DNA of 64,000 nucleotides from Marsupella aquatica (Eukaryota > Plantae > Marchantiophyta), in contig OZ316893.1 in assembly GCA_973895155.1 (NCBI GenBank), positions 7,092,963-7,156,962 on the forward strand, read 5' to 3'. Below the pieces are notes generated by a model. The model made no database searches. It was not told the DNA's origin and worked only from the letters and a program-made list of their open reading frames with translations. The position numbers and the translations under genes were made by a program. Below are positions 10,961-39,101 of the stretch, piece by piece. Numbering within the stretch: the first letter of the stretch is position 1; each line of letters begins with the position of its first letter.

Positions 10961-12197
10961 GTGACGCACACTAAAGACTTAGACTAGCTAGGGGCTAGTT
11001 GGGTCATGGGAAAGGGCCGGACTCAAGGTCGACCATCTAGACCCATGAACGGACTTTGAGTTCTGAGGGCTTGAGTAACATCTCCTCTTGGGCCCAAGGC
11101 TATTAGAGTTTACTCCATGTAAACGGACGTTTGGGGCACAAGATATGGCTCGACCTAGGTTAGGCCGCTTGGAGTCCCAAGCAATGATGGGTTTTGAGGG
11201 CCCAGACATGAGCACTAGGTTGGCCCAATCACAACGGGCTAACGCACTCTGCCTACGGACGCCTAACTAGAAAGTTATGGGCATAGCTAGTTGGTAGCAT
11301 GCCCAGACGTGCGGATTGGGGTCTAGGTTGGGGGCGAAAATATGGGAGCCAAAGTTGGTCTGGGGGTGACAGGTTTCCAGAAACATATATGAGAGGAGTG
11401 GTTCCCTGGGGGCCAAGGGTGAGCCCAAGTCGCTAAACGGTGATCGCGACACCAAGAGGAAACGTCAAACAAAATGACAATAATTTCTTGGATGCGTTGG
11501 AAATCTCTCATATACATCCTCTTGAGTCTATCTGGGTCTAGGGGTGCCACAGATTCTTGGGGTTTGTAGGGGCTATATTGTCCACTTGCCAAATCCGGCC
11601 AAAACAGCAACCAAGTTGCGTTCAATTTCCCAAGAGAGCTTACTTCCTAGGGGCCAAGTAGGCATAGAGTTGAGTTCCAACCCCTAGGCTATCAGTTGGA
11701 CGAGAACCATGAGTTGGTTGCTAGAATTGGGTCATTATGGTCTTGGCATTTTAGGACAAGCCATGAGAATGTCCTAGGGGCACGACGATCAGTTGGTGAT
11801 GGATAGGTACGAGGGGGAGCACGGGCTGCACCTGAAGAGGGGTTGTTCTAGACAAACAATGGATGTTGGCCCTGACTCCGGCCCATGGCAAAGGGAAGAC
11901 CTATCACTGACCTGCTTACCAATGTTTATTGAGTTTGAGTTAAAATGCTAGACTTTGGAGATCTAGATCCTTTTGGGTTACTTACTAGAGTGTTTGGTTG
12001 CTTGTACAGACATTGAGGGCCATTGAGTGATGATCATGTTAGGGAGCAAGTATGGCTTCATATGGAAGTGGCCGTCGGGGGTGCAAGGTGCATCAAGTTG
12101 CTTGCTCAAGGAGTTCTATGGAGACGTTTGGGCACCAAGGGCACTTAGGCGTCGGTGTTGGGATTGGTGAGGCCGTTGGGTGGTAAGGTCCACCACT
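10961..12197 (+). mobile_element. 5'-truncated, diverged copy of the non-coding AGT...ACT repeat family
   Basis: Colinear with 12659-12809 plus 38472-39952 and ends in the same ggtccaccact terminus. Confidence 0.8.
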
Positions 12198-13504
12198 ACT
12201 TGCCAGGCTATGGCGGATCCCCGTGCGGATGTACTGGGTGTGCAAAAGGATTCTTCTTTTTGCTGTGGATGTAGCCGTCAACCACGTATCTATGTGTCGA
12301 TGTTGATTTCTTGTTTGCGGTAGTTCTCAGTGATGTTGTGTTGTGTGATATTCCAACAATATGATTGGTAGGAATGGTATTCCAGTCCATCCCGGATGAT
12401 CTTATTTGAGGAACGGTTCAAGATTATCTTATGCTATTGTATAATTGTGCAATGTTGTCAAACAAAGTGCATGTGCATTAAACATTGTCAATAGTAAAGT
12501 CGCGGAACTCGACTACCTTAACACTTAGCTCTGGCATTGTTGACTCCGATGCTGAGCTCCCTTATGGTCCAGGCCTGTATAGGCCATCCGGGGAGGACTT
12601 AGCATGGGGAGACTTGTGGGCAATGAGATGTGGCACTGGCAAAGAAGGTGCCAAGCTGGTGACAAACACTAAGAACTTAGACTAGCTGAGAGCTGGTCGG
12701 GTCAAGGGGAAAAGGGCCCGGCTCAAGGTTGACGGTACCCCCAGACGGACTTTGAGTTTTGAGGGCTTGATGAGAGCTCCTCTTGGGCCCAAGGCCAATG
12801 GAGTTGACGAGTGGTGGACCTTGCCACCCAGCGCCCTCACCAATCCCAGTACTCACGCTTAAGTGCCCTTGGTGCCCGAACACCTCCACGAAATACTTTG
12901 AGCAAGCAACCTAGTGCCCCTTGCACCGCTAGCGGCCTCTCCCATACGAAGCCACACTTGCTCTCCAACATGACCGCTACTTAACGGTCCTCATTGTCTG
13001 CACAAATAACCAAGCACTTTGGTAAGTAACGCTTTGGGATCTAGAACTCACCAAGTCTAGCATCCTAACTCAAGCTCAACAGACATAGGTAAATAGGTCA
13101 GTGATAGGTCCTCCCGATGCCATAAGCCAGAACCAGAACCCACAGCCACTGTTCATCCAAAACAACTCCTTCCTTGGGTGCGGTCCGGGTTTCCCCTTGT
13201 ACCTATCCATCACCAACTGACCACCTTGACCCCAGGACATGCTCATGGCCCCAAATTAGTGTAGCTTGTCCTAAAGCTTGTCCCAAGCTTGTCCCACACG
13301 CCGAGACCAGAATGGCCCCGACTCTAGCAACCAACCCCTGGTTCTCGCCCCACTAATGGTCTAGAGGCCGAGCACCCTTGGAACTCAACCTCCACGCCTA
13401 CTTGGCCTTGCCTCCCCAACGCAAGCTCCCTTGGGAGACTGAATGCGGCTTGGCTACTGTTCGGTAGGATTTGGCAAGCGGGCGAGCTAACACCCGCAAA
13501 TCTC

Positions 13505-13836
13505 TGTTAAGGATTGCTCTTAGTCTTGTGACTCAAAGGTTACGGCACTTAGGCTAACCATAGTTAGGGTCTTAGCTGAGGTTAGGTTAGTCGTGTGTGA
13601 CCTTGTATATACCAGGGCTAGTGTAAGTCGCTGGTTAGTGGTGCTTACTCATTGTAACGGAGCAACTTGAGGAAGAGGGAGAACATGTGTGTTTGTTTAC
13701 TCTTGAAGTAAAGCTTGAGTGTTCGTGTGGACGTAGCCTTGGAGAAAAGGTGAACCACGTAGAGATTGTGTCGACTACGTGTGCATGGAATAAGTCATGG
13801 TTGTATGGTCGTTGCGAATAACGTCTTAGTTCAACA
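13505..13836 (+). repeat. Copia A 5' LTR
   Basis: Direct repeat of 34644-34975, followed by the PBS. Confidence 0.95.
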
Positions 13837-13838
13837 AT

Positions 13839-13850
13839 TGGTATTAGAGC
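13839..13850 (+). promoter_or_regulatory. Primer-binding site (initiator tRNA-Met type) of Copia A
   Basis: tggtattagagc versus canonical tggtatcagagc, 2 nt after the LTR end. Confidence 0.88.
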
Positions 13851-14840
13851 AAGCCTGGGAGGTGACGTTGAGGTGATCAAAATTTTCGTGACGTGTTGGT
13901 GACGGTTTTTCCAGCGGTTAGAGTCAGTGGATTTTACGGAGTTTCGTCGCATGAAACTTGGAGGTGTTGGGCTCAACGGATAGATCGGGGCAAGGGCTAT
14001 CTAACGGTGTAAAGAAATCTTTGAACGGAGTTTGTGGTGCGAAAGAATTCATGTTTCCATCGTTCTGGATTTTTTATGATTCGTGTTTTACGGTTTTCTT
14101 TGACGGTTCTTTCGGGGGGGACCTGAGATCGTTTACTCAACGGTGTGAGATTTGCGATGGACGAGGGTGATGTCATGCCGAGGGACAGTGCCTCTTATGC
14201 ACATCAGCATGTCCCTCGCCTGCCCGCTAGGTATGTAGTTAGGGCTAGTGTACTACCTGAGTTAGCGACATGTTCTTGTAGCAAGTCTGAGCCGTTCTTG
14301 AAGCAAATGTGTTTGTTAGTGTGACGCCAGGACTTTGCTTGCTTAGGGCATGTCTTTCTTTGTGGGTTTTTCAGTTCTTCCTGAATCGCTGTGAGACAGA
14401 GTTTTTCAGAGGCTGCTCGTCGGTTCCGTACACGGAATTCACACAGTGATTCGTTAGATACTCCCGGCCGATCTTGGCATCTCGCCGGTTTTCAATTCAA
14501 TTTCAGTACGTTTGTTTCTATCACGCCTTTTATTCAAGAAGAACTCTGATGAGGGAAAAAAGATCGGAGACGCTGTGCTTCTCAATTGCTCGAGATAATT
14601 GACATTTTTCCGTTGATGCCGGTGCAATTTCTATGGAAAAACGTTGAGCGATGGGGTGGAAGTTATGGCTTGTGTGTATACACTTAAGTATATACACTTA
14701 AGTCAAACAGGCCCCCCCTCCCTCTTTTCCTTCGCGCTTTGCTTTCAGGGTTTTTCATTTCCGGCCGCTACCAACTGCTGTTTCAGCGCCTGCCATGACC
14801 TTTTTTTGGACCGTTTTTCGGTGTTCCCCGGCCAATTTCC

Positions 14841-14951
14841 GTCGCGAGCTGTTCCCCGGCCGCGACCCCTTTTTCTTTACTCGGCCTGCCGTCGCGAGCT
14901 GTTCCCCGGCCGCGACCCCTTTTTCTTTACTCGGCCTGCCGTCGCGAGCTG
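14841..14951. repeat. 50-bp perfect tandem duplication
   Basis: gtcgcgagctgttccccggccgcgacccctttttctttactcggcctgcc twice, plus a partial third copy. Confidence 0.9.
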
Positions 14952-15050
14952 CTTCTGGTCCGGCAGCTACCCTGTCGGAGTGCTTGTGTATACACACATT
15001 CGGGGCCCATCAATGCCCCTGGGCTCGCTCCTTTCACTCCGCCTTACGCA

Positions 15051-15451
15051 CATAGGGCATTGTGCCCTGGTCTTAATAGAGTTGTTGGTAGGAGGGGGAG
15101 CCGAGCACGAGGCAGCGCGAGGCGAGGAGGGGGCACGAAGCCCTATGAGGAATTAAAGAGGGGGAGGGGAGTTAAGTCGACTCCCTTCTCGGGAGTACAT
15201 ACGACTCCCTCCTCGGGAGTTTCTGCCAGGGGCACAAGGCCCTATGAGGGATTTAAAGCCAGGAGGAGGGGAGCGAGAGTGCAAGGAGTGGGCACGAGGC
15301 CCTATGCTGCAATAAAAGGAGGCAAGGAGGGGGAGCGAGAGTGCCAGGAGAGGGCACAAGGCCCTAAGCTACATTAAAGGAGGGGAGGGGAGTTCAATTC
15401 GAACTCCCTCACACGGGAGTACTTAGGCCTGCCAGGGCACGAAGCCCCAAG
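15051..15451 (+). repeat. Left subterminal array of the 17-bp motif GGGCACAAGGCCCTATG
   Basis: One reverse copy at 15051, then forward copies at 15131, 15230, 15290, 15352 and 15435, mostly followed by TTAAA and a G-rich tract. Confidence 0.85.
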
Positions 15452-16244
15452 GAGGCTTCGGGAGCTCATAAGGAGGGGGGAGGGGGGTATAAAGCCCTAT
15501 GCACAGGGCTCATTTCTTTTTCTTCGCCTCACTCTTCCCATTTTCTTTTCGCCTTTTTCGGCTTGTCTCGTTTTTTTCGCTGCACGACGATCGACCTGTT
15601 TCCATCTCTCGGGTCCACATCGGGCTGATGTGTATACACTTCAGATCCTATGTCCCACTTGGCCCGATTTTCTTTTCCTGCTGACGCGCGCCTCTTTGGT
15701 TTTCCTTTTCCTACCAGTTTTTGGGTCCACATAGGGGCCCGATGTATACACTTAAGGGAGGGCCACTTCTAGTTTCTTTTCCCGGATTTCTTTATTGCCG
15801 CCAACATTAGGCCTTTCCCGCGTTTTTAAGGGGCTTTTCTTTGCCGACAATTTTTCTTTGTGACCGTTTTTCTGTGTGTTTACACATTCAACACATTGCT
15901 GCCTTGCACCGTTTGTTTCCTTTGTGGGTTTCATTTCCTAGCCTTGGGGCTGCCACTTCTTTTTCTTGTCAGTTTCTTTCCCATTGGCACCCCAAGTGAG
16001 CATGCAGCATGTCAGCAGAGGAGCCGACTCGTAGCAGCTCATTGCCACCAACACCCAGGTACCACTTGCGGAGTGATCCACGACCGTTGGTGCCAATTTC
16101 ATTGGAATCTCAGCAATTTCGACGACGTCCGCAGACAGCAGCAGCACCCACACCACGCAATCCTCCTGCTACATTTGGCGGTCGCTTCACCACTACTCCG
16201 AAGCCTGCTATCACTGTTGGGTATTTACTCTTACGTCTAGGTTA

Positions 16245-16358
16245 GGTATGACGTGGTTGGTACAACAACGTGGGTTGGTACAACTACGTGGTTAGGTACA
16301 ACTACGTGATTAGGTACAACTATGTGGTTAGGTACAACTACGTGGTTAGGTACAACTA
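16245..16358 (+). repeat. 18-bp tandem array with ACGTG(G) cores in the Copia B LTR U3
   Basis: About six copies of ggtacaactacgtggtta. The identical array is at ~20679-20792. Confidence 0.85.
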
Positions 16359-16577
16359 AGTTGCACACTATATCATAAGAGGCATGTGTGCTTGGAGAGG
16401 TAGAACCAAGGCTCATTGTTATGGAGCCACTTGAGAGATAGGGAGAGCTTACACTGTGGAGACTCGGTATAGCCGACGGGCTTAGAGTTCAGTAAAGCTC
16501 TCTTGTGTGTTCCCGTGGACGTAGTCTCAAGGAGGTGAACCACGTATCTCTTGTGTCGACTATTGTGCGTTGGATGG

Positions 16578-19500
16578 AGCAAGTATCACCGCAAGGAGTT
16601 GTCAAACCGGCTCTACACTTCCTACAAACTGATGAGTTTCAGGATGAAGGAATCTGGTACAAAGTTGCAAGACCATGTGGATGCTTTCAACGACATGGTC
16701 GTTGACTTGAAAAAACCTTGGAGAGACTTTGAATGATGAGACGAAGGCTCTGCAGCTTCTTAGTTCATTGCCTCCATCTTACCAGTCCCTATCACGAGTG
16801 TTGTTGCATCGTGATAGGGATACCATTTCATACAATGACGTGGTAAGTTCTCTGCTTAGTGATGATCTTTAGCAGAAGATGCACATCACGTCATAGCCTT
16901 CATCATCTGGTGTTGCCCTCAATGTTAACCGTGGGAGGAGTATGCAACGACCAACTGGGGACCGTAGAACCCAGTTTAGATCTAAATCCAGATCTAAGTC
17001 CAAGGGTAAATCCCCTCAGAGGAGGCAGGTGACATGTTGGAAGTGCAACCAAGTTGGACACTTCAAGCGAGACTGTAAGGGAAAGGCAGCGGAAACTTCA
17101 TCGGCAAATGTGGCTAGGGCTGATGGAGAAGCTGATTTACTCAATGATGAGTATGTTTTATGAAGCCGGGGGTATGCCCTGTGCACGTCATCTAGGAGAG
17201 CAGATGATGTGTGGATTCTTGATTGTGCTTGCTCTTTTCATATTTGTTACATTCGTGAGTTTTTCAGTTCTTACTCTGTTTCAAACGGTTCAATTCTGAT
17301 GGGAAATGATCACTCCTGTCAAATTGAGGGAATTGGGTCTGTGAAGATTCAAATGTTTGATGGCGCTGTGCGCACAATGTCCGGAGTCAGGTATGTATCT
17401 GGCATGCGTAAGAATCTGATTTCACTCAGTGTGTTGGATTCAAATGGTCATCAATGGAGCGTTATTGATGGTGAACTTCAAGTCAGGTCGGGAGAGACAG
17501 TGATTTTAAAGGGAAGTAGACAAAAGAATTTGTATGTGTTACAGGGCAATACTGTATGTGGAGAGGCCAATGTAACCAAGTCTCATGAGGAGATGACTCA
17601 ACTGTGGCATTCACGACTAGGCCACATGACTGAGAAGGGTTTGGCTATCTTACGAAAGAATGGACTCATTTCTGATTTGCAATCTTGTAAATTAGAGTTT
17701 TGTGAGCATTGCATTCTTGGAAAGCAGCATCGTCGTGCTTTTGGTGTTGGAACTCATCGTTCCAAAGCGGTTCTTGAGTACATACATAGTGACGTGTGGG
17801 GTCCATCCTCGACTCCCTCACACTCTGGAAAGTTGTACTATGTATCATTTATTGATGATTACTCAAGATTTGTGTGGATTTATTTCATGACGCATAAGTC
17901 TGATGTCTTGTCCATTTTTAAGAAGTGGAAGGCCTAGGTGGAGAATCAGACTGGAAACAAGATCAAGTGTTTGGATACAAGGGTGAAGAGTCTGAGGTCA
18001 GACAACGGCGGGGAGTACACTTCAATGGAATTTGAAGAGTACTGTTCAGAATAGGGGATAACTCGCCATCTCACCACAGTTTATACTCCGCAGCAGAATG
18101 GTGTCGTTGAGAGGCTCAATCGGACACTATTGGAGCGGTCACGGAGTATGTTGAGCCAATCAGGTTTACCACAAGAATTTTGGGCAGAAGCTGTCAATAC
18201 CGCAGCTTATTTGGTAAATCTTTCTCCTTCTAGTGCTATCAATTTCAAAACGCCGTTTGAGATGCGCTATAAGCGGCAAGCAGACTATCATGGCTTGGTA
18301 GTTTTTGGAAGTGATGCATATGCTCTCACACCGAAGCATAATAGGACCAAGTTGGATCCTACCTCCAAGAAATGTGTTTTTCTTGGGTACCAGAGTGGTG
18401 TGAAAGCCTATAGGCTATTGGATCCTATTGCCTGTAATCTCATTGTCAGTAGGGATGTTTCCTTCAATGAATCCAGATTATTGAAGGAGGGGGAGAATAC
18501 TCATGTCTCCCGTACTGACAAAGGAAAATATCTTATCCCAGATCTCGTTGAGGGGGAGATTGGTTATGAGGTGCATGACCGGAGAGAAGGAGTTGCTCCA
18601 ATTATGGAGCTGGTTCCTGTGCCAGAGGAACCAGAGGAGTTTGTTGATGCTGGTGAGCAGCAAGTGGATGTTGGTGAGCAGCAAGTGGATGCTGTTGAGC
18701 TTCAAATTGTACCAGCACACGCAGATCAACCGGAGTCATCGGCTAGAAGAACATCTGGTCGCACTGTACGCGCTCCACCAAGGTATGGACAGTGGATTGA
18801 TTCATCTCAACTGCAAGAGGATGATTTTGCAAGTGATGATGAGGGTGATGCGTTAATTTTGGAAGAAGGGGAACCTTCTTCATTTCATGAGGCAAGTGCT
18901 TCAAAGGAGAAGCAGAAGTGGACTGCAACAATGCAAACGGAGATGCAGTCACTAAAGGACAACAAAACTTGGGAGCTTGTTAAGCTGCCTAAGGGTCAGC
19001 AAGTGATGGACAGCAAGTGGATTTACAAGCTGAAGGATAATTCCATAGGAGGTGGATCAAAGGTCTACAAGGCTAGGTTGGTAGCAAAGGGATTCACACA
19101 AGAGAAAGGTGTGGATTACAATGAGGTCTTCTCACCAGTTGCTAAGTACTCTACAATACGACTATTATGTGTACTTGTTGTAATGTTTGGTCTGCTGCTA
19201 GATCAAATAGATGTTGTCACAGCTTTCCTCTATGGCACATTGGAAGAGGTGATCTTCATGAGACAACCGCTAGGTTTTGTGAAGAGAGGACAGGAGGAAT
19301 TGGTTTGCAGATTGCTGAAATCCTTGTATGGGTTGAAGCAGTCATCAAGATAGTGGAACAAGCGGTTTGACGATTGGATTCGGTCACAAGGTTTTCACAG
19401 AAGTGTATTTGACCCTTTGTGTGTATTTGAAACCGGTAAAGAATGTTATCTTTGGGTTCATTGTTTTAGTACTTTATGTGGATGATATGCTAATTGCAGC

Positions 19501-20458
19501 CAAGGATAGGTCTGAGATTGTTAAGCTCAAGGCACTACTTAGTGCAGAGTTTAAGATGAAGGACTTAGGGCCAGCTAAGAGGATTTTGGGTATGGAGATC
19601 ACTAGGGACTTGGAGGCTGGCAAGCTATGGTTGACGCAGAGCAGTTATGCGAGGAAGGTAATTGCAAGGTTCAACATGGGGAATAGCAAGCCAGTAAGTA
19701 CCCCGTTGGCTCCACACTTCAAGTTATCATCAGCGTTCTATCCTACGGATGACACAGAGAAGGGGTTGATGTCAAAGGTTCCGTATGACAAGGCAGTGGG
19801 GAGTCTCATGTATTTGATGACTTGCACTAGACCTGATCTTGCCATGACTATGGGCAAGGTAAGCAGGTACATGTCGAATCCAGGGAAGGTACACTGAGAA
19901 GCAGTGAAGTGGATTATCAGGTACTTGAAAGGTACCATGGATCATGGTCTTTTATTTGATGCGAATGCAAAGAATGCTAAATCATTGATTGGCTATGTTG
20001 ATTCTGACTATGGACAAGATTTGGACCGAAGGAGATCAACAACAGGATACGTGTTCACACTTGGCGGTGGATGCATAAGTTGGAGATCTACTTTGCAGAA
20101 GTGTATTGCTCAGTCTACTACAGAAGCGGAGTATGTTGCAGCTACGGAAGCAGCAAAGGAAGCGATTTGGTTGGATAGACTTATCACTGAAATGGGATTG
20201 CCACAGGGGAATGTGAAGCTCCATTGTGATAGTCAAAGTGCGCTCCACCTTGCTGTGAACCAGGTGATGGACAACAGAGTGAAGCACATTGACGTCAGGT
20301 ACCATTTTATCAGGCAGGCTGTGTCTGATAATTTGTTTGAGCTAGTCAAGATTGATGGTAAACTCAACCCGGCTGACGCATTTACCAAAGTGATTCCTTT
20401 GGCGAGTTTCTCTAGACACCGTGACGTATTGCAGGTTTTGCAATTGCATCACAAGTAG
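16578..20458 (+). pseudogene. Copia B gag-pol (gag remnant, PR, INT, RT, RNase H)
   Basis: CWKCNQVGHFKRDC, WILDCAC, WHSRLGH..CEHC, HSDVWGP, YKARLVAKG, YVDD, STTEAEY. Several stops and one frameshift near 19415. Confidence 0.93.
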
Positions 20459-20648
20459 AGTTTTCTTAACATTCATTGTAATTACTGATATATGCTCTTC
20501 CTCATTCCTATGTATTAGGCTACGGCTTAGTTCTGGTTTGCTCTAGTTAGAGAGGGAAACCGGTTTGGTTTTTGTCCAGAACTTCCCGCTGAGGGATCAT
20601 ATACATTGGCAGTATTACTCTCCCCTAGACCAGAGTCAAGGGGAAGAT

Positions 20649-21051
20649 TGTTGGGTATTTACTCTTACGTCTAGGTTAGGTATGACGTGGTTGGTACAAC
20701 AACGTGGGTTGGTACAACTACGTGGTTAGGTACAACTACGTGATTAGGTACAACTATGTGGTTAGGTACAACTACGTGGTTAGGTACAACTAAGTTGCAC
20801 ACTATATCATAAGAGGCATGTGTGCTTGGAGAGGTAGAACCAAGGCTCATTGTTATGGAGCCACTTGAGAGATAGAAAGAGCTTACACTGTGGAGACTCG
20901 GTATAGCCGACGGGCTTAGAGTTCAGTAAAGCTCTCTTGTGTATTCCCGTGGACGTAGCCTCAAGGAGGTGAACCACGTATCTCTTGTGTCGACTATTGT
21001 GCGTTGGATGGTTCATGGGCTTGCCGTTGCGATTGTCGTCTATGCTCAACA
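20649..21051 (+). repeat. Copia B 3' LTR
   Basis: Follows the PPT, ends caaca, followed by the TSD. Confidence 0.95.
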
Positions 21052-23969
21052 ATCACTTCGTTGCCATTTACCCCTTCTGCATCAGTGGTTGTTCCTGCTT
21101 CACCGACATACAGCATGGATGCCAGCCACTCATCTGGCCGCATTGAGCGCTTCAGCGAGCGGCCAGGCACTGTCTCTTTACGTGAGTTCAAATCCACTTT
21201 CTACACTGTCGTTTACGAATTGGAGTTGAAGTACGGCAGCAATTTCACAAATGCGTTTGCATTTAAGCAGCTAGCCAGGTATGTACACCATGAGGCTTTA
21301 GATGTGTATGAGCAGCACTCTCAACGGCTGCTTGCTGTCACACAGTTGCCTAACCCTACCTATGCCAGTGCAATTGCGGCAACTTCACAATTGGCCTTAC
21401 AAAATGCCATTGCAGCCCATGCTGCTGCTCCTGCCACTTCCCCTCCTACTCCAGTTCCTACCACTGCGCCAGTTACTCCCACTGTCTTGGCACAGGCTAC
21501 ATCAGGCATTTCTCCCACCATTGATTCTCTTGCCTTTGCTGATCCAGTGGCTGAGTTTTTCCAGGTTCTTGAATTGGAATTCCCAATCAAGAGTGCTGAC
21601 AAAATCATGCAGTTGGCGACCTTTGTGAGGCAGCGTGATGAAACATTGAAGATGATGTATTGCCGACTTCTCAAGCTGAAGGAGGACACCCAGAGCATCA
21701 CTGACTTGGAAGCTGCTCATCGTTATCTTCGCGCATTGGAGGGCACACCAGCTCTCCATTCACAAGTATTGCAGCAAGTATTCTTAGAGTTTGGGGATAG
21801 CTACACACTGCTCAATGTCTATGACACTACTGAGAAACTTGAGTTGGCCCATGCACATTATGAGGCCAGTATTGCGCGTCCACCGCGATCCAGGTACCAG
21901 GCTGCTGCCCCTCCACTGGCCACTCTTTCTCGTGTGCCACAGTATGGTTCCAAGACCAAGCCAGCACATGCTGCTTTCATGCTGCCATCCTACAACTACT
22001 GTGGTAACCCCAATCACAAGGCTAATGAGTGTGATATTGTTGCTGAGGACCTGTCTTATGATTTTTGCGGAAAAGTGGGTCACTTGGAGGTAGTTTGTTT
22101 TGCCAAATTCCCAGAGAGGAAGCAGCTACGACAGCAGGCCCCTCATCCTGCTCCTGCTTCCACTCCCCCCCCAGCTAGGAGGGCTCCTACTGCATCCACT
22201 GCTCCTCCTTCCAGTGGCAAAGCACCCGGTGCTAACAAATTGCCCAAGCAGCCACAGAAGCAACCAGCTCAGAAGGAGGCTCACAATGCACAGGCAACTC
22301 AACTCCAGTCTCTGACTCATGAGATTGAGTCCTTACGTGCCCAACTTGCCAACATCAAAGGCAAGTCCACTGCCTCTGCTGGTCCTTCTCAACCGGCTGG
22401 TCACGTGCAACCCATCCTTGGCCCAGGCACCGCTGATAGTTCAGCACCTCTACCCCACTCTTTCTATGGCTTACCATTTGATGCTCATATGGGTGAGTGT
22501 GTGCTGTCCTCTGCTACACAGCCTGGCCTTACAGCAGAATTTTCAGATTCATTCTGCCCTTCCTATTTTGCTTACCAGCAGGCCAGTGCTGCCTCCCGTA
22601 TTGCTCCCACCCGCCGCATTGTACAGGCTGATGGTCTTGCTGCTGGTCCTATGACTAGAGCCAGGGAACTCGGGCTGTCATGCCCCAATCTTTTCAGCCC
22701 CTCACACTTGCTGAAGAGCGGACCTTGTTGGCGAGGGGGGAGGGAGCTGCAGCTACATCCATTCCACCACCAGGTGCTGCTGACATTTCACAGGGAGTTG
22801 TTTCTCTTGAGGTACTTGAGCATTTCACCTCCGGTATGGCACAAAGGATTCTTACAACTCCACTTTTTAGTTGCCATGATTTATAGCTGGATGCTAGAGC
22901 TATCATCAGAGCGCTAGAGGGCTCACTGCATTCTTCATCAGCCCCTATGACACCGGTTTTGGAGGTCCAATCTCATGTATATACTGGACCTTCTTCTTCT
23001 TCATTGCATGCTTCCACTAGTTTGGCTATCCCAGTACCGATTTCCAATGGTAGAGATGACAGTATTGTTGCAGATTGTGTGACCAGAGCTACACTGGATT
23101 CTGGTCATGCTGCTTCATCTTTCTTGGCTATGCTGTTGAGTGGGAAGACCGTGGACACTAACTCCCTTCACAAGGTACCTCATCATTTGCCAAAAGTGGT
23201 GCCTAGTGACAGGACTTTAGTTTCCACCACCATTGCCATTGTTGACAATAGGAATTCAGCAGTCAAGTTGGAGGGTCACACTCCTCAGGTGGTCATGCTA
23301 GACATAGGCGCTCAACCAGTAATCTTGGGCATTCAGTTTGCCAAGAAGATGGGACTGTTGACTGATCATTTACAGCAATCCAGGTGGCACATTCGGACTG
23401 CTAGTGGCACTGTGGAGGATGTGCTGGGTGAGAGTTCTACTTTACTTACTCTCACTTTTAATGGAGGTACAGATCAGGAACTGCATTTCCCAGTCAGATG
23501 TTTCGTTACCAATGCCACTACGTATGATGTGCTCATTGGCCAAGAGGCTTTGTTCCCACCAGGTTTTACCATTGACAATTGGCATGAGCATGCATACTAC
23601 AGAGTTGATTGGCATACGGATGGCTCACACTTGGGATACATTCCACTTGATTTGCATGGTGCCCATACCCCTATGGCTCACCACTCTGTGTTGAAAGCAG
23701 TGCACATAGCTACCTATGTCAATCACCCATTGCAAGATTGGATTGAGGAGGATGACGATGAGGTGGCTGCTGCATATGCTGCTGCACGTATAGCAGCACT
23801 TTCCAGCAACGTGGATCATCAACCAGAGGTGGTACAACGGCTCCAAGCAGCCCATGGACCTTTGGTGGCTGCATTGCACAAGTTTGAAGACCTTGGGCAG
23901 CACAATGGACAGCCAATAGCCCCAATCTTGAGCGCACCAGTTAAATGGACTCCTCCTTCAGATGGCCTT

Positions 23970-24900
23970 ACATTGCTTGAGCTTTTTGGTGGCATTTCTA
24001 TAGGCCTGGAAGCTCTCCTACAGTCTGGCATGGTGGTGAAGCAGTACATCTATGTGGACATTGATCCAAGTGCAAGGCAAGTGGCTGAATCCCGTCTGCT
24101 GGAATTTTCCGAGCGATTTCCCCAGCAGTTTCCACATAGTGCATGGAAGTCTGCATTTTCTTTCTTCCCTCCAGACATCCAGCTTGTCCAGCACCGACAC
24201 TTAACCCTTCTTGGCTCCCTTGATTTGATCATAGCTGGTTGGGAATGCCAAGGGTTTTCAGCTGCTGGTCACGGTGTTGGACTGCATGATTCTCGTTCTG
24301 GCCTTTTCACAGCATTGGTTCAGATTCTCACCTGGGCTCAATCCCTTTATCCTGCTGTTGGTTATATCATTGAGAATACTCCATCTCAGTTTGACCAGCG
24401 TCCACAGGTCAAAGAGGATTTTAGTGTGGTCCAACACTACTTGGGACCACCCCTTCTCATTGATGCAGTGCACTGTGGTTCTTATGCACATCGTCTTTGT
24501 AACTTTTGGACTAACCTTGCACCACCTTCCTTGTTGGAGTTAGCTCTTCACCACACATCCAGGGACACTAACCTCACAGTGGACCAGATTTTGGATCCTG
24601 ACAGTTCTTGCCAACCGGTTACACGGCAAGAGCCAGCACCTTGGTATCCAGCTAATACCATTGGACAGCCCCGTGCTGCTTGGCCTACATTTGTGTCCTT
24701 TCCAGGTGCACATGCTTTTCAGGGTGATGGTCCTGGCCTGGTTTATCGACATTCTACCGGTACATGGGATGAACCTAGTCCTGAGGAGAGAGAACGGGCT
24801 ATGGGCTTCCAACCCGGTACTACAGGTCACACCAAAATCACCAGGCTGGCCAGGACTGCTTTACTTGGCAAGGTAATGGATCTTAATGCTCTCACTTGGC
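23970..24900 (+). other. C5 cytosine DNA methyltransferase domain inside pol
   Basis: Motifs in canonical order: I LLELFGGISIG, II YVDID, IV DLIIAGWECQGFS, VI IIENT, VIII HRLCNFWTN, IX ERERAMGF, X LLGKVMD. Confidence 0.9.
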
Positions 24901-27900
24901 TTCTGGTCACTTGCATCCTTTTTCAGATGTACATTCATCCAGCATCAGGAGTGCCAGCCCTACCACTCCATGGTGCTACTACATGGCATCCAGACCAGGT
25001 GCACTTACCTCTGTCCAACACTCACCACTTCAGTCCAAGTGTTGGGGGGGAGGAGGTCCCTTGTAATGTGGCTGACATTATTTCTGAGTTTCATGGTGTG
25101 GAGCAGACCAGAGCAACAAATACAGCAGGCCTTGGAGAGGCCTCATCACCTTATCAGCAGCATGCTAGCAGCTTGGATAGTGGAGAGGCTGGCACTTCTG
25201 GCTCTTCAAGCATGAGTACATCAGGTCCTATTCCTAGTGTTGCCAACTACACATTCATCATGGGCAACCACCTGAGTAAAAGACAGAAGGACCAGCTGCT
25301 GAATTTTCTCCTCAAGCATGAGAATGTGTTTGCTTTCTCTATGAAGGACTTGGGTAAGTGCAAGACTATGCAGTTCTCCATTGAGTTGGCTGATGAAACA
25401 CCTATCTTCAGGCGGAGACACCGTTTGAGTAAGCATGAGTGGCAGCTGGTGGATGAGAGATGCCAAGAGCTCTATGAAGCTAGTCTTATTCAGCCATCTA
25501 CATCAGATTTTGCAGCAGCTACAGTGATGCCAGCAAAGAAGGATTCCAGTGGATTGTGGACAGAGAAGCGCATGTGTGGGGACTACAGGCCACTGAACCT
25601 GGTCACACCCCAGGATAGGTATCCCATGCCACGGCCAGAGGAGCTATTTGACAGCATTGGAGACTTAGACATCTTCACTCTTGTGGATCTAAGGCAAGGC
25701 TTTAACCAGATTTTGCTGCTTGCAAAGGACCGCAAGAAAACAACTTTCCATGGTAGGAACCAACTATGGGAGTGGTTGGTGATGCCATTTGGCTTGAAGA
25801 ATGCGCCCATATTCTTTCAAAGAGTCATGGACCAGGTTCTTCAAGGTGTTGAGTTTATGAAATGCTACATTGATGATGTGTTGGTCCACAGCAAAGGATT
25901 TGACCAGCATCTACTTGACCTTGAGGAGCTATTCATGAGGCTTAAGAAGGTGAATCTAAAGATACACCCCAAGAAGTGTGAATTTGCTGTCAGATCAGTA
26001 GTATACCTTGGGCACCGCATTCTTCCAAATGGAACCATGGCTCACTGGGCCAAGGTGGTATCCATCTTGGAAATGCCCACTCCTACCGATGTTCACACTT
26101 TGAGGAGTTTTATTGGGTTGTGCAATTACTACCGGATCTACATCAAAGATTTCAGTACCATTGCACACCCATTGTATGCTTTGTTGAAAAAGAATGTGAC
26201 TTGGACATGGAGTACAGATGCTGAGGCAGCATTTGCCACTTTGAAGGAGAAGCTCTCAGAATACCCGATGTTGAGAAGACCTAATTTCAGCAAGGTCTTT
26301 GTGCTACACACAGATTGGAGTGCCCTTGGGATTGGTGCCATTCTGGGCCAGCATGATGAGGAAGGTAAAGAGTACGTCATTGCCTATGCATCTAGGAGCA
26401 ACAATCAGGCAGAGAGTCATTATTCTTCTTATGAGGGTGAATGCCTTGCTGTTGTGTGGGCTGTCATACATTATAGGCCCTACCTCTATGGGACCAGGTT
26501 TGTTCTCTACACCGACCACCAGCCCTTGAAGTGGTTGATGACCAATGACAAGCTTACTGGCAAGCTTGCTCGTTGGGCGCTCATACTCTAGGAGTATGAT
26601 TTTGAGGTAATTCATAGGCCTGGTGTGACACATCAGAATGCTGACACTATGTCCCGCAACCCTTTGATTACCTCTGATGATTCCTCAGATGCACGACAAG
26701 ATTTTGACCAGATTTCCATCCTGCCTACATTTCATGCATCGACCTATCTTGCTTTGCTGCCATGCTATGTTGTTGACCAACCTGTGGTGGACATATGGGA
26801 GGACAGCAACACTCTGAGATTTCTGCAGCATGGGGAGTTACCCACACATGTTACTGCTGCCCAGAGAGACCGAATTCAGCAAAGGTCCAAGCGCTACTTG
26901 TGGAAGGGAGATCATCTCGTGCGCTGCTTGCCAGACAGGGAAGTGGTGGTTCCACCCATTCATGAGAGGGTTGGCCTTATCCGTAAGGTACATTCTGAGC
27001 TTGGTCATTTTGGCGTTAAGAGGACTTACAGCCTCTTGGTCCCTCATTATCATTGGAGAGGCATGCATGGCCAGGTTCGAGATGTTATTGCCCGGTGTGA
27101 ACAGTGTGATAGGGTGAGGACTTCTTTCACATCTCGGCAACCCACACTTCATCCACTCCCTATTCAGGGCATGTTTTATCGCTGGTCATGTGATTTGGCT
27201 GGAGAATTACCCCTCACATCTCGGGGTAATCTCTACATCATGATCATGATAGAGCATTTCTCCAAGTGGATAGAACTTGTGGCATTGCCGGATAAGACCT
27301 CCTGTAGCACCAGCCAGGCATTCCTGCAACAAGTTCTCAGCCGCTTTGGAGCTTGTGCAGAATGTCTCACTGACCAGGGCTCAGAGTTTAGAGGAGAGTT
27401 CCAGGAGCTGCTTGATCAGGCCCTCATTGATCATCGCCGGACATCACGAGATCACCCACAGGCAGATGGCTTGGCAGAGCGCATGGTTCAGACATGCAAG
27501 AAGGGTCTCCGGAAGATCTGCCTCACCAAAAACAAGGAGGATTGGGACCTGGCCTTACCCTACATTGCCATGGGGTATAGGATGTCCAGACATGCATCAC
27601 TGTCTAACTTTTCTCCCTACTTCTTGTTGTTTGGTCGTCACCCAGTTCCACCTTCTGCTATCGCTGCTCACATGCTTCAGGTGGTGGACTTGGATTCAGC
27701 TATGACTTGGTCTGATGTGATCTCTGAGAGGGCTACCCTATTCAGGAGGGTTATGCCCATGGCCATGGAGAATTTGGCCATTGCACAGCACAGGGACACA
27801 CTGCGTTATGCACACACACGAGGGGGCACTTTTCAGCCCAAGGTCAGGAAGTTTGATGTGGGAGATTTTGTGTACTTGCAGCGGCAAGCTAACGACACCC

Positions 27901-28085
27901 TGGACACCTCTACCAGTCGAACTATTCTCAGGGTTAAAGCTATTCGACCGTCTGGAGTGCTAGAGTTACAAGGGGCAGATGGGCGCACAATTGCTGACAA
28001 TGCCAAGAATTGCGCCCCTTGTCATCTGCCCAACCTAGATCCCACCATTGTGACTTCTACTTGGATTCCACTTGTGGACTACCCT

Positions 28086-28220
28086 TGCAAGGTGTGTTTG
28101 CGAATTGATGATGCTGACCAGATGCTGTTGTGTGACAATTGCAATGGAGGGTACCATCTTTTCTACCTTCGGCCTGAACTTACCCAGGTGCTAGAAGGGT
28201 TATGGTTTTGCCCTTCTTGT
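28086..28220 (+). other. PHD finger at the integrase C-terminus
   Basis: CKVC..DDADQMLLCDNCNGGYHLFYL.PEL....EGLWFCPSC gives C4HC3 spacing, with one ligand Cys read as Tyr. Confidence 0.9.
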
Positions 28221-29013
28221 GCTCCACGTGCTACCTGAATTTTCTTCAGCTCTCCTTTTGGCTGTGGTCTGGGGGGGATACAGAGGTTTACACCTCCACT
28301 ACATACATACCACTTCATTTGTTTTTTCTTGGCACTTGTGAATGTGATTGGACTTTTTCTATGCATGTTGGTTGCTAGCAGCTTGCACATATGCCTTGCC
28401 GGTGACTTGTATGTTTTTGATACACTATGGCTACGATACTATATGTCACGACAGTGACGCATACTATAGCTCAAATCGTAGATCGGGCAAAGTTGATCGT
28501 TTTGGTAGCTGGTTTGCTATCAAAGGTGTAGCGAGTGCGACGTTCCGAGCAAAAGAGCCGTTCTGAGTTTTTGACCGGCTATGAAGGTCTTCTTTTGACT
28601 GAAGTGGGGTTTCTTGTCGTTACGTTCGACTCAGAGGAAGATTCGTGAAGTACTATGACTTAAAGGAGAGATCGCGGCGAGGTGGTCATTTTGAGTCCGG
28701 GATTGGCACTTAACACGGAGTGAAGGAGTCATGACGGGAAGTTTTTACTCTGCTAGAGTTGCAGACGGCGCCGGTGAAATTTGGAAATATTTCCCGTTGG
28801 TGACGTGCACTTTTCTTGTGTGAAACGACGACATTTTCAGTAAGTAACACGGCAAATTTTTTTTGCGGCAACATTTGTGCGTTTTAAAGGGGTTTTAACC
28901 CCTTATGTGTATACATGTGCACCCACCCCCCCAGGCATACGATAACCCCCCCGGCGCGCGTACAGCGCCATATTCGCGCGCATATACAGTTCCCCCCCCC
29001 TCATTAAAGCCAC

Positions 29014-29292
29014 TTTAGGGCCTTGTGCCCTGGACATCCCCCCCCTCCCCCCTTTCGCTAGCCCTCCTCCCACCTCCTCATTAAAGCCACATAGGGCCTT
29101 GTGCCCTGGACATTCTCCTCCCCTTCCCCCCTCATTAAAGCCACATAGGGCCTTGTGCCCTATTTATTATCTCCCTCCCCTCCCCTCTTTTCTGCACGCC
29201 TCCCCTCCATCATATGGCCTTGTGCCCTAGCATAGGGCCTTGTGAGGCAATTAAAGAGGGGGAGCCAGGCCAGGAGGGCACGCTGCCCTATG
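29014..29292 (-). repeat. Right subterminal array of the same 17-bp motif in inverted orientation
   Basis: CATAGGGCCTTGTGCCC-type copies at 29014, 29090, 29144, 29211 and 29231 (partial), then one forward copy at 29276. Confidence 0.85.
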
Positions 29293-30003
29293 AGCCATTA
29301 AGGCAGAGTACACCCCCTCCCTCCCACCCACGTACGTATCCGCGCAGTACCCCATCCGCGTACTAGCGTACCCCTGGCCCTTAATACACTGTATTTTTTG
29401 AAAAGGGATTCCCCCCCCCTTTAGGGCAATTTTTTCTTCTTTCTCCTCTTTGCTAAGCGGCAACCCGGGCCCGGTGACCCGGCAATTTAACCGCTCTGAC
29501 AGGGGGAACGGCCCCCTGTGAGACCTGCCGCACAATCCAAGGAATATTCTGAAAAAATAGAGAACTATTTTTTGGCCTTTAGTCAAAGATTCCAAGGTCC
29601 GAACGGTAACTTTTTTTGGACCTTTTTTGGCGAGGACGTAGCCACTGAAGCTAGCAACGCGGTGCACCACTTGATTTGCATTTTTGATGACGGGTGGTAC
29701 TTGGAATTTTTCTTATTCCCCGAGGTGGTCAAAACGGGGGAGAATTTTTTGAGTTTTACCCACCCCGATCGAAATGTGAAAAAGTTTTTCATCGGAACTC
29801 GGTTTCAATTTCGGATTTCAGCATTGGCTTGCTAGGCTGGTGGGCTACGTGGCAGTGACAAGTTTCAAGTTTTTTGGAAAGTTGTGAAAAATGATATTTT
29901 TTCATGATTTGGATTTGAGTCAACGGGACGGAAGAAAGGAAAAAGCGACAAAAGGATATAGGGAGCAACAAAGAAATAGCATGTGGAGAATGTCGGGAGG
30001 ATA

Positions 30004-34643: not shown

Positions 34644-34975
34644 TGTTAAGGATTGCTCTTAGTCTTGTGACTCAAAGGTTACGGCACTTAGGCTAACCAC
34701 AGTTAGGGTCTTAGCTGAGGTTAGGTTAGTCGTGTGTGACCTTGTATATACCAGGGCTAGTGTAAGCCACTGGTTAGTGGTGCTTACTCATTGTAACGGA
34801 GCAACTTGAGGAAGAGGGAGAGCATGTGTGTTTGTTTACTCTTGAAGTAAAGCTTGAGTGTTCGTGTGGACGTAGCCTTGGAGAAGAGGTGAACCACGTA
34901 GAGATTGTGTCGATTACGTGTGCATGGAATAAGTCATGGTTGTATGGTCGTTGCGAATGACGTCTTAGTTCAACA
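34644..34975 (+). repeat. Copia A 3' LTR
   Basis: Direct repeat of 13505-13836, directly after the PPT. Confidence 0.95.
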
Positions 34976-35620
34976 ACCTCGAGAACCCATGACATCCCCA
35001 GACCCAGTTGAGCTCAAGAGGACGTAGCCCTCCTCAAAAGATTTTCAACGCACCCCAAGAAGTCCTCCAATAGACTTCCTGTTGGGAAGATATCGTTGTT
35101 TCCGTTTGGCGCTTTCCCTTAGTGTCGCGACCGCCATGGCTCACGACTTCGGCTCGCCCTTGGCCCCCAGGGAGACACCACTCCCCTCATATATGCTTTT
35201 GGAGACCTGCCACCCCAGACCAATTGTGGTCCCTAAACATTTGGCCTCCAACCCAGATCCTATCGCGCATAGTGGGCGCTACCAACTGGCAACGCCCATA
35301 ACTTTCTCGTTAGGCGTCCGCAAGCGGAGTGCCTTAGCCCGTTGTGATCGGGCCGACCTAGTGCTCATGCCTAGGCCCTCAGGTCTCATTGCCGCTTGGG
35401 GTCTCCAATCGGCCAAACCCGGATCGGGCCCTAACTCACGCCCCAAACATCCGTTGCCCATGGCGTCAACTCCATTGGCCTTGGGCCCAAGAGGAGCTCA
35501 CACTCAAGCCCTCAAAACTCAAAGTCCGTCCGGGGGCCCAAACGGTCGACCTTGAGTCCGGCCCCTTTCCCCTTGACCCGACCAGCTCTCAGCTCGCCTA
35601 AGTCCTTAGTGTGTCTCACC

Positions 35621-38111: not shown

Positions 38112-38172
38112 TCACCCCCTTGGCTCCTTGCCTTCGCTAGTGCCACGTCTCATTGCCCACTAGTCTCCCCGT

Positions 38173-38374
38173 CCCTGGGCCCTCACTCCGTGTAAAAGAA
38201 GTGGACCCCCTGTGATCGGGCACTTTTCCTGTTTACCCCTTGTTATTTCTATTTTGCTATTAAAAGTTTCCTTATTACCGGTAATAATTATAATTATTAG
38301 TTCAAAATGAATAAAAATTACCCTTCAAGCTTTCACACGTCCTCCATGTATTAGTTAAGACTGAGGGCCCAGGG
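38173..38374. mobile_element. hAT-like MITE
   Basis: Perfect 13-bp TIR ccctgggccctca / tgagggcccaggg. 8-bp TSD ctccccgt / ctccccat. Confidence 0.85.
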
Positions 38375-38779
38375 CTCCCCATGCTAAGTCCTCCCCGGAT
38401 GGCCTATCCGGGCCTGGACCATAAGGGAGCTCGGCGTCGGAGTTAAGGTAGTCAAGTTCCGTGACTTGATGCCATGGGCAACGGACACTTGGGGCGCGAG
38501 TTATGACCCGATCCGGGTTTGGCCGATCGGGGGCCTTGAGTGGCGATGAGATCTGAGGGCCTAGGCATGAGCACTGGGCCGGCCTGATCACAACGGGCTA
38601 AGGCACTTTGCTTGCGGACGCATAACTAGGAAGTTATGGGCATTGTCAGTTGGTGGCGCGCCTAGACATGCGAGATAGGGTCCGGGTTAGGGACCAAAAG
38701 TTTGGGGACCAAAGTTGGTCCGGGGGTGGCAGGTCTCCAAAAGCATATATGAGGGGAGTTGTGTCTCCTTGGGGGCTAA

Positions 38780-39101
38780 AAGCCAGGTTCCATGGGCCAG
38801 GGGTAGGGAGTACGGTCACTCCCTCTGACATCCCCTAGGGCCCAAATACACCGTATGCCAAGGTGTATACAATATTTTAAATATATGAATTTTGACTCAG
38901 GAGCCAATGAGAATGCCTTGTATCGTTCGTATACAGGGGCAGGGGGTACCCCTGAAGTTTAAGAGGGAGTGTGAGGGAAAATCATACTCCTTGATATAGT
39001 ATTTGTACACCCTTCAGTCCCTGGAAAAGCTGCAATCTTATTGGCTTAAAAATTCTGACAGCATCCGTACTCCTTACTCCCAGCCCCATGGAACCTAGCC
39101 C
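38780..39101. mobile_element. Tourist (PIF/Harbinger-type) MITE
   Basis: ~35-bp imperfect TIRs (..aggttccatggg..ggagtacgg / ccgtactcc..cccatggaacct..). TAA TSD (38777-38779 / 39102-39104). Absent from the sister repeat copies. Confidence 0.85.

Follow-up and report, generated by a model that had tools for sequence, protein, structure and literature searches.

KnitGypsy-Dnmt3 of Klebsormidium nitens combines Gypsy domains with a Dnmt3-related methyltransferase in Pol, and its repeats are arranged as in DIRS elements according to the legend of Fig. 4c, an order that Fig. 1e of the same paper defines as A-coding region-B-A-B (de Mendoza et al. 2018, PMC5890265). There, the element is treated as an acquisition of the K. 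nitens lineage (PMC5890265). The element analysed here lies in a stretch of 64,000 nucleotides from the liverwort Marsupella aquatica (the window), and its family resembles KnitGypsy-Dnmt3, by description, in the Dnmt3-related DNA methyltransferase (DNMT) inside Pol and, at 21 of 51 classifiable sites of relatives, in the A-cds-B-A-B layout (cds, coding region). This layout of a Dnmt3-Gypsy element was already noted once, in the 2018 legend on Klebsormidium; the passages of that account devoted to the element (PMC5890265) do not give termini, target-site duplication (TSD), primer site, junction, mechanism, PHD finger or repeat-free form. Our literature search returned no description of the internal junction, of its self-priming, of the repeat-free form or of members in land plants, and no Klebsormidium-named protein occurs among the matches of our protein homologue searches.

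Split direct repeats in the order A1-cds-B1-A2-B2 are described for the tyrosine-recombinase retroelements PAT, Kangaroo, TOC and Ngaro (PMC4157794). The window family has the same split repeats as portrayed in that source, but shows a DDE integrase, TG...CA ends, 4-bp TSDs, a polypurine tract (PPT) and a predicted self-priming site. Self-priming in place of a tRNA primer is described for the Tf1/Sushi group and the Tcn1 chromoviruses of bryophytes (PMC6317226), which have in common with the window element a Ty3-type reverse transcriptase (RT) and self-priming, the latter predicted here. As presented in that paper, these groups have ordinary LTR pairs and mostly a chromodomain, whereas the window element is marked by a PHD finger, a DNMT and split repeats. 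Gypsy-7a_cRei of Chlamydomonas reinhardtii is an active green-algal Gypsy with a PHD finger, and a legend mentions LTR subparts (PMC9940879); in this description, which is our basis for the comparison, no DNMT is listed and the left and right LTRs are nearly complete. We also considered Troyka, likewise an LTR lineage with non-standard ends, and rejected it because its report (PMC12440569) gives CG...CG ends, a 3-bp TSD, an ordinary LTR pair and occurrence in animals only, as against TG...CA and 4 bp here.

The integrases of foamy virus (PMC1180852) and HIV-1 (PMC1905944) are reported to cut palindromes at 2-LTR junctions as a side activity. The window family is similar in having a DDE integrase and an internal palindrome whose cutting would yield processed ends, as deduced here from sequence. 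In the viral accounts, however, the palindrome arises from joined cDNA tips and serves a side route, whereas here it is encoded inside the LTR and would define every integrated end.

Termini, insertion site and coding region

The preliminary description had noted that the DNMT-Gypsy element is without an LTR pair, and a self-BLAST of the window confirms this. The element is a Ty3/Gypsy-type retrotransposon without end repeats that extends from 14171 to 28453 on the forward strand, where all features given below also lie. It starts with TGTCA and ends with CGACA (TG...CA ends), and is flanked by an exact 4-bp TSD, GTGA, at 14167-14170 and 28454-28457. Its terminal segments, A (14171-14533, about 363 bp) and B (28278-28453, 176 bp, ending in CACGACA), are unrelated to each other, with scores of 16 in direct and 19 in inverted orientation against shuffle means of 18.5 and 16.6. 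The left end is backed by contigs, as five of the 32 pieces listed start at 14171 and cross 14231 unbroken, and by global alignment of 14171-14550 with the 5' repeat (A1) of the relative L020, end to end (score 133, shuffles 31.9 +/- 11.2); the right edge of A is placed by the primer site and is accurate within a few bases. The right end is placed by the TSD and by alignment of B with the region PPT-B1 of L020 (score 90, shuffles 25.7 +/- 10.1). We infer that B and A together make up an LTR, with B at the left and A, which would hold the end of U3, R and U5, at the right. Just inside the left end, 14179-14218 form a hairpin (DNA fold z -2.5), which is similar in L020 (z -3.2) and weak in the distant relative L087 (z -0.9). 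Contig depth over A exceeds the depth over the gag start about twofold in three runs and roughly equals it in one, depth not being the same as copy number.

Compared with the ends proposed before, 14231 and 29830, the element is 60 bp longer at the left and 1.4 kb shorter at the right. The earlier ends are wrong, since contigs cross 14231 and 14171-14230 aligns with the family terminus, and the statement that the ends are not TG...CA does not hold for the true, GTGA-flanked termini. A single hexamer such as gctagg, which had been taken as the boundary, is uninformative, the two flanks having 1,807 hexamer position pairs in common. The diverged patches reported between the flanks are at chance level (best local score 24 against 20.2 +/- 2.3, shuffle maximum 27), and both right-hand patches fall outside the element. 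The stems thought to be restored in the Copia leader on removal of the insert use tgtcatgcc as left arm, which is the element's own terminus, with 14179-14218 making its own hairpin. Several other candidates were dropped: ends at 14171-29860 (TGTCA...TGACA), which have no TSD; a diverged LTR pair at 14171-15984 and 28444-29860, whose terminal patches are at chance level and whose above-chance global score (-173, shuffles -319 +/- 25) comes from a shared motif array; and a candidate that keeps this right end and has its 6-bp match at 13888-13893, because contigs and alignment fix the left end at 14171.

As previously stated, the element is inserted in the leader of Copia A (13505-34975), which shows 7 differences over 332 sites between its LTRs (13505-13836 and 34644-34975); the 5-bp TSD of Copia A has one mismatch (ATCTC/ACCTC). 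The window copy is younger than this host (2.1% LTR divergence), which leaves little time for a later loss of repeats. Beyond the right TSD, 28458-29985 lies outside the Gypsy and is most likely the remainder of the leader of Copia A; a search of this region for a match to A gave none above chance. A second element, Copia B (16215-21051, TSD ATCAC, LTRs differing at 4 of 363 sites, 5' LTR truncated at 16577), is nested in the Gypsy and foreign to it, and its empty site is visible in contigs as loose ends at 16215.

A variable 5' leader with repeat arrays (14545-16008) precedes the start of gag (16009-16214), which has a matching ATG region in L020 and is split by Copia B. The remaining gag (21057-22886) has matches in two frames, the frame being broken near 22690-22900 in this copy, and gag-like clusters are a further line of evidence for it. 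Next comes pol (22887-26591), with protease, a Dnmt3-like methyltransferase (23952-24893), RT and RNase H, and an in-frame stop at 26589-26591 in the window copy, followed by the integrase (26592-28238) with its H2C2 zinc finger, DDE core and C-terminal PHD finger. The domains of the window element are protease, C5-DNMT, RT, RNase H, integrase and PHD. A domain search of the three Gypsy ORFs found rve, H2C2 and PHD domains, and no match to a tyrosine recombinase or a chromodomain. The PR-RT-RH-IN order (Pfam), the best PDB match of the RT (Ty3 RT, E 9e-65), the TG...CA ends with a TSD in the 4-6 bp range, the PPT and the primer site, predicted to be of the self-priming type, agree with Ty3/Gypsy (Metaviridae). 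The DNMT inside Pol (PF00145) has DNMT3A as top PDB matches (E 6e-5), the closest among solved structures. By name, homologues of the DNMT-bearing Pol occur in Calypogeia, Marchantia, Closterium and several chlorophytes, which takes DNMT-carrying Gypsy elements well beyond Klebsormidium.

The G-rich tract at 28271 that had been described as PPT-like is a real PPT (G7, 28271-28277) by alignment to a relative, and a G-run precedes B in close and distant relatives alike. The PBS-like motif at 15985, in turn, is absent from the matching place in L020 (read by eye), and a tRNA primer site there was rejected; the family primer site lies directly after A. This predicted self-priming site (14534-14544) has the same position in 16 of 16 close relatives. 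The predicted transcript 5' end, or self-primer, at 14373-14386 is complementary to 14532-14545 at 13 of 14 positions, and at the single mismatch, 14381, contigs from all four runs read the pairing base. The pair is the best 14-nt complement in the window and in all 16 close relatives, and the self-primer lies about 33 nt past a TATA motif in the 14 of these 16 that yielded such a motif; in the alignment, A of the window copy is without the TATAAAA motif of its relatives. The distant L087 and L090 have complementary pairs of different sequence, and no such pair was found in L089. Compensating changes in the pairing between primer site and A occur across four lineages, pointing to probable self-priming of the Tf1 type. 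In L020 the predicted helix coincides with the minimum-energy fold (z -3.7), which is not so for the window copy (z -0.7).

Repeat layouts and junctions among relatives

We collected 80 relatives, which represent 63 distinct sites: 24 end at B, 21 show B-A-B, three have B-A followed by other DNA, three run into a contig end and 12 lack a scorable B. Absence of an LTR pair is a family trait (24 of 51 classifiable sites), and most of the others have split repeats. The A-cds-B-A-B layout is found at 21 of the 51 sites, in copies from another genus-level lineage whose non-coding flanks give no BLAST match to the window, the window copy itself being A-cds-B. Four scans of viral_contigs returned only six phage-type methylase loci (L001-L006) or nothing, and these loci are excluded from all counts.

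Both family forms, A-cds-PPT-B-(2 nt)-A-B and A-cds-PPT-B, carry 4-bp TSDs; the 14 loci with both ends comprise eight exact 4-bp duplications, three with one mismatch and three that are absent or unclear. Each of the 14 complete close relatives is missing a full LTR at one end or both, and B is never upstream of A at the 16 sites with a 5' end. Eight copies are complete A-cds-B-A-B, and by simple arithmetic such an asymmetry would have a probability of 0.004 if either junction were used equally. In two further copies, L036 and L063, the element breaks off at the tip of A2 and unrelated DNA follows, as would be expected of a mis-repaired free tip.

The two kinds of junction differ in precision. 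The B|A junction is precise: it is a palindrome, CA-GC-TG (generally CA-NN-TG), with a spacer of exactly 2 nt in 24 of 25 cases (GC 8, AC 8, GT 6, AT 2), where AC, GT and AT are all explicable as deaminated GC. Its core, GACAGCTGTC, is also present 55-106 bp past the G-run in four of eight distant loci (L087-L090, integrase 46-51% identical); the four without it are two that end too early, one with a weak partial match, and L093. The circle junctions of the IS3 family and IS30 are built similarly, from abutted ends 2-3 bp apart that an integrase-like DDE enzyme cuts; these are bacterial DNA transposons, in which the junction is made by the transposase and not by reverse transcription. The A|B junction is imprecise, with nine of 21 A2|B2 sites blunt, seven short by 1-2 nt, three with one extra base and two with larger deletions (read by eye; L012 and L024 are probably not independent in these counts). 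It falls in a short AT repeat, and some of the 1-2 nt losses may postdate insertion.

B1 and B2 of the same element differ by 3.4 transversions and indels, compared with 6.4-7.4 between elements. On this count, which was adopted after raw identity had placed the own copy nearest in only 7 of 19 cases, the own copy is nearest or joint nearest for 11 of 19 B and 5 of 7 A segments, and B2 is not nearest to its own B1 in 8 of 19. Such a likeness is as expected if one template per cycle duplicates each repeat.

Proposed integration at an internal palindrome

On balance, we lean towards the view that the family holds both integration ends back-to-back in an LTR-internal palindrome, and that the integrase likely cuts there and not at the cDNA tips. 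An A-cds-B-A-B copy would be transcribed from inside A1 to inside A2, with self-priming as in Tf1, and ordinary reverse transcription would turn the RNA into a linear cDNA that bears a B+A LTR at either end. If each strand of a palindrome were then nicked once after CA, the products would be two recessed CA-3' ends carrying 2-nt overhangs, which matches the geometry of processed retroviral ends. We suppose that the integrase uses the junction of the 5' LTR and inserts both of these ends, while the two cDNA tips stay behind as a break; the 5' junction might be preferred if it becomes double-stranded first, which is a conjecture. End-joining of the tips would restore A-cds-B-A-B, while annealing of the two B copies would produce A-cds-B, the form in the window. 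The first strand transfer needs a second A, which A-cds-B does not have; the window copy is therefore predicted to be a dead end, and this is likely its status; it is further damaged by a frameshift, a stop and the nested Copia.

A possible, though less probable, course is that circles come first: the linear cDNA would be closed into a 2-LTR circle by end-joining, or into a 1-LTR circle, and the integrase would open the palindrome, with A-cds-B arising from a 1-LTR circle or from later chromosomal recombination between B1 and B2, as in solo-LTR formation. This would account equally well for the imprecise A|B, the precise B|A and the TSDs of both forms, and it has a precedent in the cleavage of the 2-LTR junction palindrome by foamy virus integrase, as reported in PMC1180852. 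L087 also assembles as a circle (PPT-B-palindrome-A-primer site), although collapsed repeats would look alike. However, a 2-LTR circle has two equal palindromes, so that A-B-A-cds-B should be equally common, and it is seen at none of the 16 5' ends; copies ending at the A2 tip (L036, L063) are not predicted either, and a later B1/B2 loss had little time in a copy younger than its host Copia. In a cycle like that of PAT and Ngaro, the RNA would extend from A1 through B2, the internal B1-A2 copy would act as a splint for the cDNA ends, and the DDE integrase would replace the tyrosine recombinase for the final joining only; such a cycle is unlikely. The repeat order is that of PAT and Ngaro as described (PMC4157794; PMC5890265), and the single orientation of the extra repeats would be accounted for, but B begins just past the PPT and A stops just before the primer site, like LTR ends, the A2|B2 junction varies as though newly made, and B2 on average follows its own B1 and not other B2 copies.

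We regard it as very improbable that the window holds an ordinary LTR element whose pair was lost by recombination or deletion: the copy is otherwise damaged, which would fit, but an exact TSD surrounds A...B and full LTRs at both ends are missing from the complete close relatives. The least credible reading places the unit at 14231-29830 with gctagg as its boundary, and takes it for a gag-pol cassette that another mobile unit carries. The hexamer does occur at both sites and the flanks share a motif array (inverted local score 81 against 24 +/- 2), but the unbroken contigs, the family terminus at 14171-14230, hexamer pairs that follow from composition and the chance level of the patches argue against it, and the cassette is not supported. 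The other option of the preliminary description, a derived Gypsy that replicates or integrates by a different route, is supported, in that the absence of an LTR pair is a family trait, with split repeats in most other copies. The label "LTR-less" is apt for the missing pair but not for an element with TG...CA ends, a 4-bp TSD, a PPT and a primer site. Ordinary identical LTRs in other copies, or junctions elsewhere with TG...CA ends, had been named as evidence against the earlier reading; such LTRs are absent from other copies, and the junctions do lie elsewhere and are TG...CA.

Implications for integration and genome annotation

The usual picture of a retroviral-type integrase has it acting at the tips of linear cDNA. 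Here, the genomic record suggests a lineage whose integrated ends are all set by an internal palindrome. We consider it probable that a Ty3/Gypsy clade whose range extends from chlorophyte algae to mosses and liverworts has shifted its integrase attachment site away from the tips, to one LTR-internal palindrome, and that every insertion cuts this junction to give either a replication-competent split-repeat copy or a repeat-free dead end. Whether junction DNA can serve as an integration substrate is an old question, which could be tested with a natural enzyme and a 10-bp site. A normal LTR cycle with no tyrosine recombinase involved might be one way in which split repeats like those of DIRS/PAT elements arise. 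As about half of the copies are devoid of any terminal repeat, LTR-pair finders would miss or misdate these copies. If the proposal is correct, this would be the first LTR-retroelement lineage with an internal junction as obligatory integrase substrate, and would represent a largely unannotated share of bryophyte and algal genomes, carrying its own DNA methyltransferase and PHD reader.

Ends of the Gypsy and its setting

The window contains plant retroelements nested in one another. Copia A, whose LTRs (13505-13836 and 34644-34975) differ at 7 of 332 sites and whose TSD reads ATCTC/ACCTC, houses in its leader a Ty3/Gypsy element, here the Gypsy, with protease, C5-methyltransferase, RT, RNase H, integrase, and PHD, while Copia B (16215-21051, 4 of 363 LTR sites differing) lies inside the Gypsy gag. 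Since the Gypsy sits in Copia A and Copia B sits in the Gypsy, its insertion falls between two recent events.

The preliminary description found no LTR pair in the Gypsy, which we confirm within the window. It also placed the ends at 14231 and 29830, and these do not hold: of contigs from four public runs mapped to 13400-16300, at least five pieces from three runs, among the 32 listed, begin at 14171 and read through 14231, covering 60 letters or more to its left and right. The two patch pairs said to be shared by the flanks (14265-14301/28537-28566 and 14604-14643/28788-28827) score at chance level, and gctagg, proposed as the boundary, is one hexamer where the flanks have 1,807 hexamer pairs in common. 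Ends derived from the family give a Gypsy of 14171-28453 with GTGA flanking both sides and a terminal segment B of 176 bp, which makes the window copy an A-cds-B form, A and B being the family's two unrelated terminal segments and cds the coding region. In global alignment with L020, a close metagenome relative, 14171-14550 scores 133 against the 5' repeat (shuffles 31.9 ± 11.2) and 28231-28453 scores 90 against the PPT and first 3' repeat (shuffles 25.7 ± 10.1). With the right end at 28453, 28458-29985 lies outside the Gypsy; without the insert, the Copia A leader, to which this stretch most likely belongs, would measure about 1.85 kb. The Gypsy at 14171-28453 is a real, young element devoid of an LTR pair, and its anatomy is well supported.

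In Copia B, the 5' LTR is truncated at 16577 and followed directly by gag, with primer site and leader absent; its TSD, ATCAC, is intact, and the LTR holds tandem 20-bp units. The target of Copia A is another repeat, present in several copies, 72-88% similar, in both orientations (10961-13504, 34976-35620, 38112-39952). At 35909-36171 and 60128-60664 the sequence is tandemly repeated, with periods of 33 bp and 156 bp. The stretches 41729-43493, 46764-48384, and 61352-62122 hold two Pfam-less ORFs, a DDE_Tnp_4 transposase of Harbinger type that is split, and an expansin ORF free of interruptions. The closest named match of a window expansin is from the liverwort Calypogeia fissa (71%), which makes a bryophyte host probable.

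Terminal segments in relatives

Close relatives were collected by integrase alignment against metagenome contigs (the best 80 of 460 confirmed loci, 66-81% identical), collapsing to 63 distinct sites, and distant relatives comprise 8 loci from genome contigs, 28-51% identical to the Gypsy integrase. Contigs of the distant relatives L087-L093 sit in prokaryote genome bins (cyanobacterial, Halorubrum, Mollicutes, others) yet encode a eukaryotic retroelement, probably through binning contamination by eukaryotic DNA. The non-coding ends of close relatives gave no BLAST match to the window but do match in global alignment. Segment A (about 290-340 bp) begins TGTCATG, and segment B (about 176 bp) runs from the first base after the G-run to CACGACA. 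Among the 63 sites, the 3' end is PPT-B-A-B in 21 and PPT-B in 24; in three, B-A is followed by foreign DNA, in another three the contig ends first, and in the remaining 12 no B could be scored. The 14 two-ended loci within the best 80 divide into eight A-cds-B-A-B, with 4-bp TSDs (six exact, two with one mismatch), and six A-cds-B (two exact, one with one mismatch, three none or unclear). B was found upstream of A at none of the 16 sites with a 5' end within these 80 loci. In L036 (4840) and L063 (3985), B-A stops exactly at the tip of A2, the second copy of A, with unrelated DNA beyond, which in L036 is followed by a further family member in reverse orientation; L014 (1805-1929) shows an inverted partial A directly after B.

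The junction of B1, the first B, with A2 is CA-NN-TG, with a 2-nt spacer at 24 of 25 sites from the best 80 loci (GC 8, AC 8, GT 6, AT 2), and its core, GACAGCTGTC, is a palindrome. The same core occurs 55-106 bp past a G-run in L087-L090 (46-51% integrase identity), of which L088 is likewise B-A-B; it was not found in the distant relatives L093 and L094, and L091 and L092 end too early. The A2-B2 junction is imprecise, being, at 21 sites read by eye, blunt in nine, 1-2 nt short in seven, extended by a base in three, and more largely deleted in two. Repeats of one element are closer than those of different elements: B copies differ by 3.4 transversions plus indels within elements versus 6.4-7.4 between them, and the element's own copy is the nearest in 11/19 cases for B and 5/7 for A.

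One legend in PMC5890265 likens the repeat arrangement of KnitGypsy-Dnmt3 to DIRS, and the Fig. 6 legend of PMC9940879 gives Gypsy-7a_cRei, laboratory-active in Chlamydomonas, a PHD finger and 'LTR subparts'. We found no description of the internal junction, TSD, self-priming, repeat-free form, or land-plant members in the accessible literature, including the available portions of PMC5890265 with its supplement text, PMC12440569 (Troyka), PMC9940879, PMC4157794 (PAT/Ngaro layout), PMC1180852 (foamy virus junction cleavage), and bioRxiv 10.64898/2026.05.21.726589; a curated one (Repbase, theses) may exist.

Coding region and leader module

The coding region of the window copy loses its frame near 22690-22900, and there is a stop at 26589-26591. 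In its DNMT, closest to DNMT3A, catalytic Cys and EN motif are both retained, but motif VIII has Cys in place of its second Arg, a position that is Arg in most relatives, so that this enzyme is likely impaired. In many protein homologues (P0008, P0010, P0013, P0016, P0022, and others) the DNMT follows RNase H and precedes integrase rather than standing between protease and RT, which indicates that the domain moved, or was gained more than once, within the clade.

A related motif array occurs in opposite orientation in the Gypsy leader (15030-15500) and in the assigned Copia A leader (28987-29310), with a local score of 81 versus 24 ± 2, and these two unrelated retroelements seem to have a leader module in common. 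The Gypsy's copy of the array is covered by contigs at low depth, contrary to what a high-copy MITE would give. Palindromes of the TGTGTATACAC type are seen at 14669-15756 and near 28905.

Priming and the proposed internal cut

No tRNA-type primer site was found after A. Self-priming in Tf1 involves 11 nt. In each of 16 close relatives compared, when the first 430 nt are scanned for complementary 14-mers, the best match joins the end of A and the next bases to a site about 33 nt past a TATA motif, this motif being present in 14 of the 16. The window pair differs, 14373-14386 matching 14532-14545 at 13 of 14 positions, and contigs of all four runs have the pairing base at the mismatched position. 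Two further complementary pairs come from L087 and L090, and none was found in the distant relative L089. Changes on one side of the pair are mirrored on the other. Minimum-energy folding yields the predicted helix in L020 (z -3.7) but not in the window copy (z -0.7). PMC6317226 describes self-priming for Tf1/Sushi and Tcn1.

From these sequence comparisons we infer how the family may replicate. Because B starts at the PPT and A stops at the primer site, the LTR arising from reverse transcription would be B+A, and the cDNA would have B at its left tip and A at its right. Integrated copies, by contrast, start with the left end of A and finish with the right end of B, and these ends together make up the internal palindrome. 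If both of its strands were nicked after CA, recessed CA ends with 2-nt overhangs would result, which is the geometry of processed retroviral ends. The cDNA tips would have to be either joined or lost, whether ahead of insertion or following it.

We lean toward the tips being dealt with after insertion, since no copy shows the A-B-A-cds-B order and the A2 tip is where two copies break off. Circles formed first, or later B-B recombination, could instead account for the integrated forms, a possibility we regard as rather doubtful, and a PAT-like route appears improbable. The after-insertion reading and the circle or B-B reading have the internal cut in common, and such a cut very probably operates in this Gypsy family.
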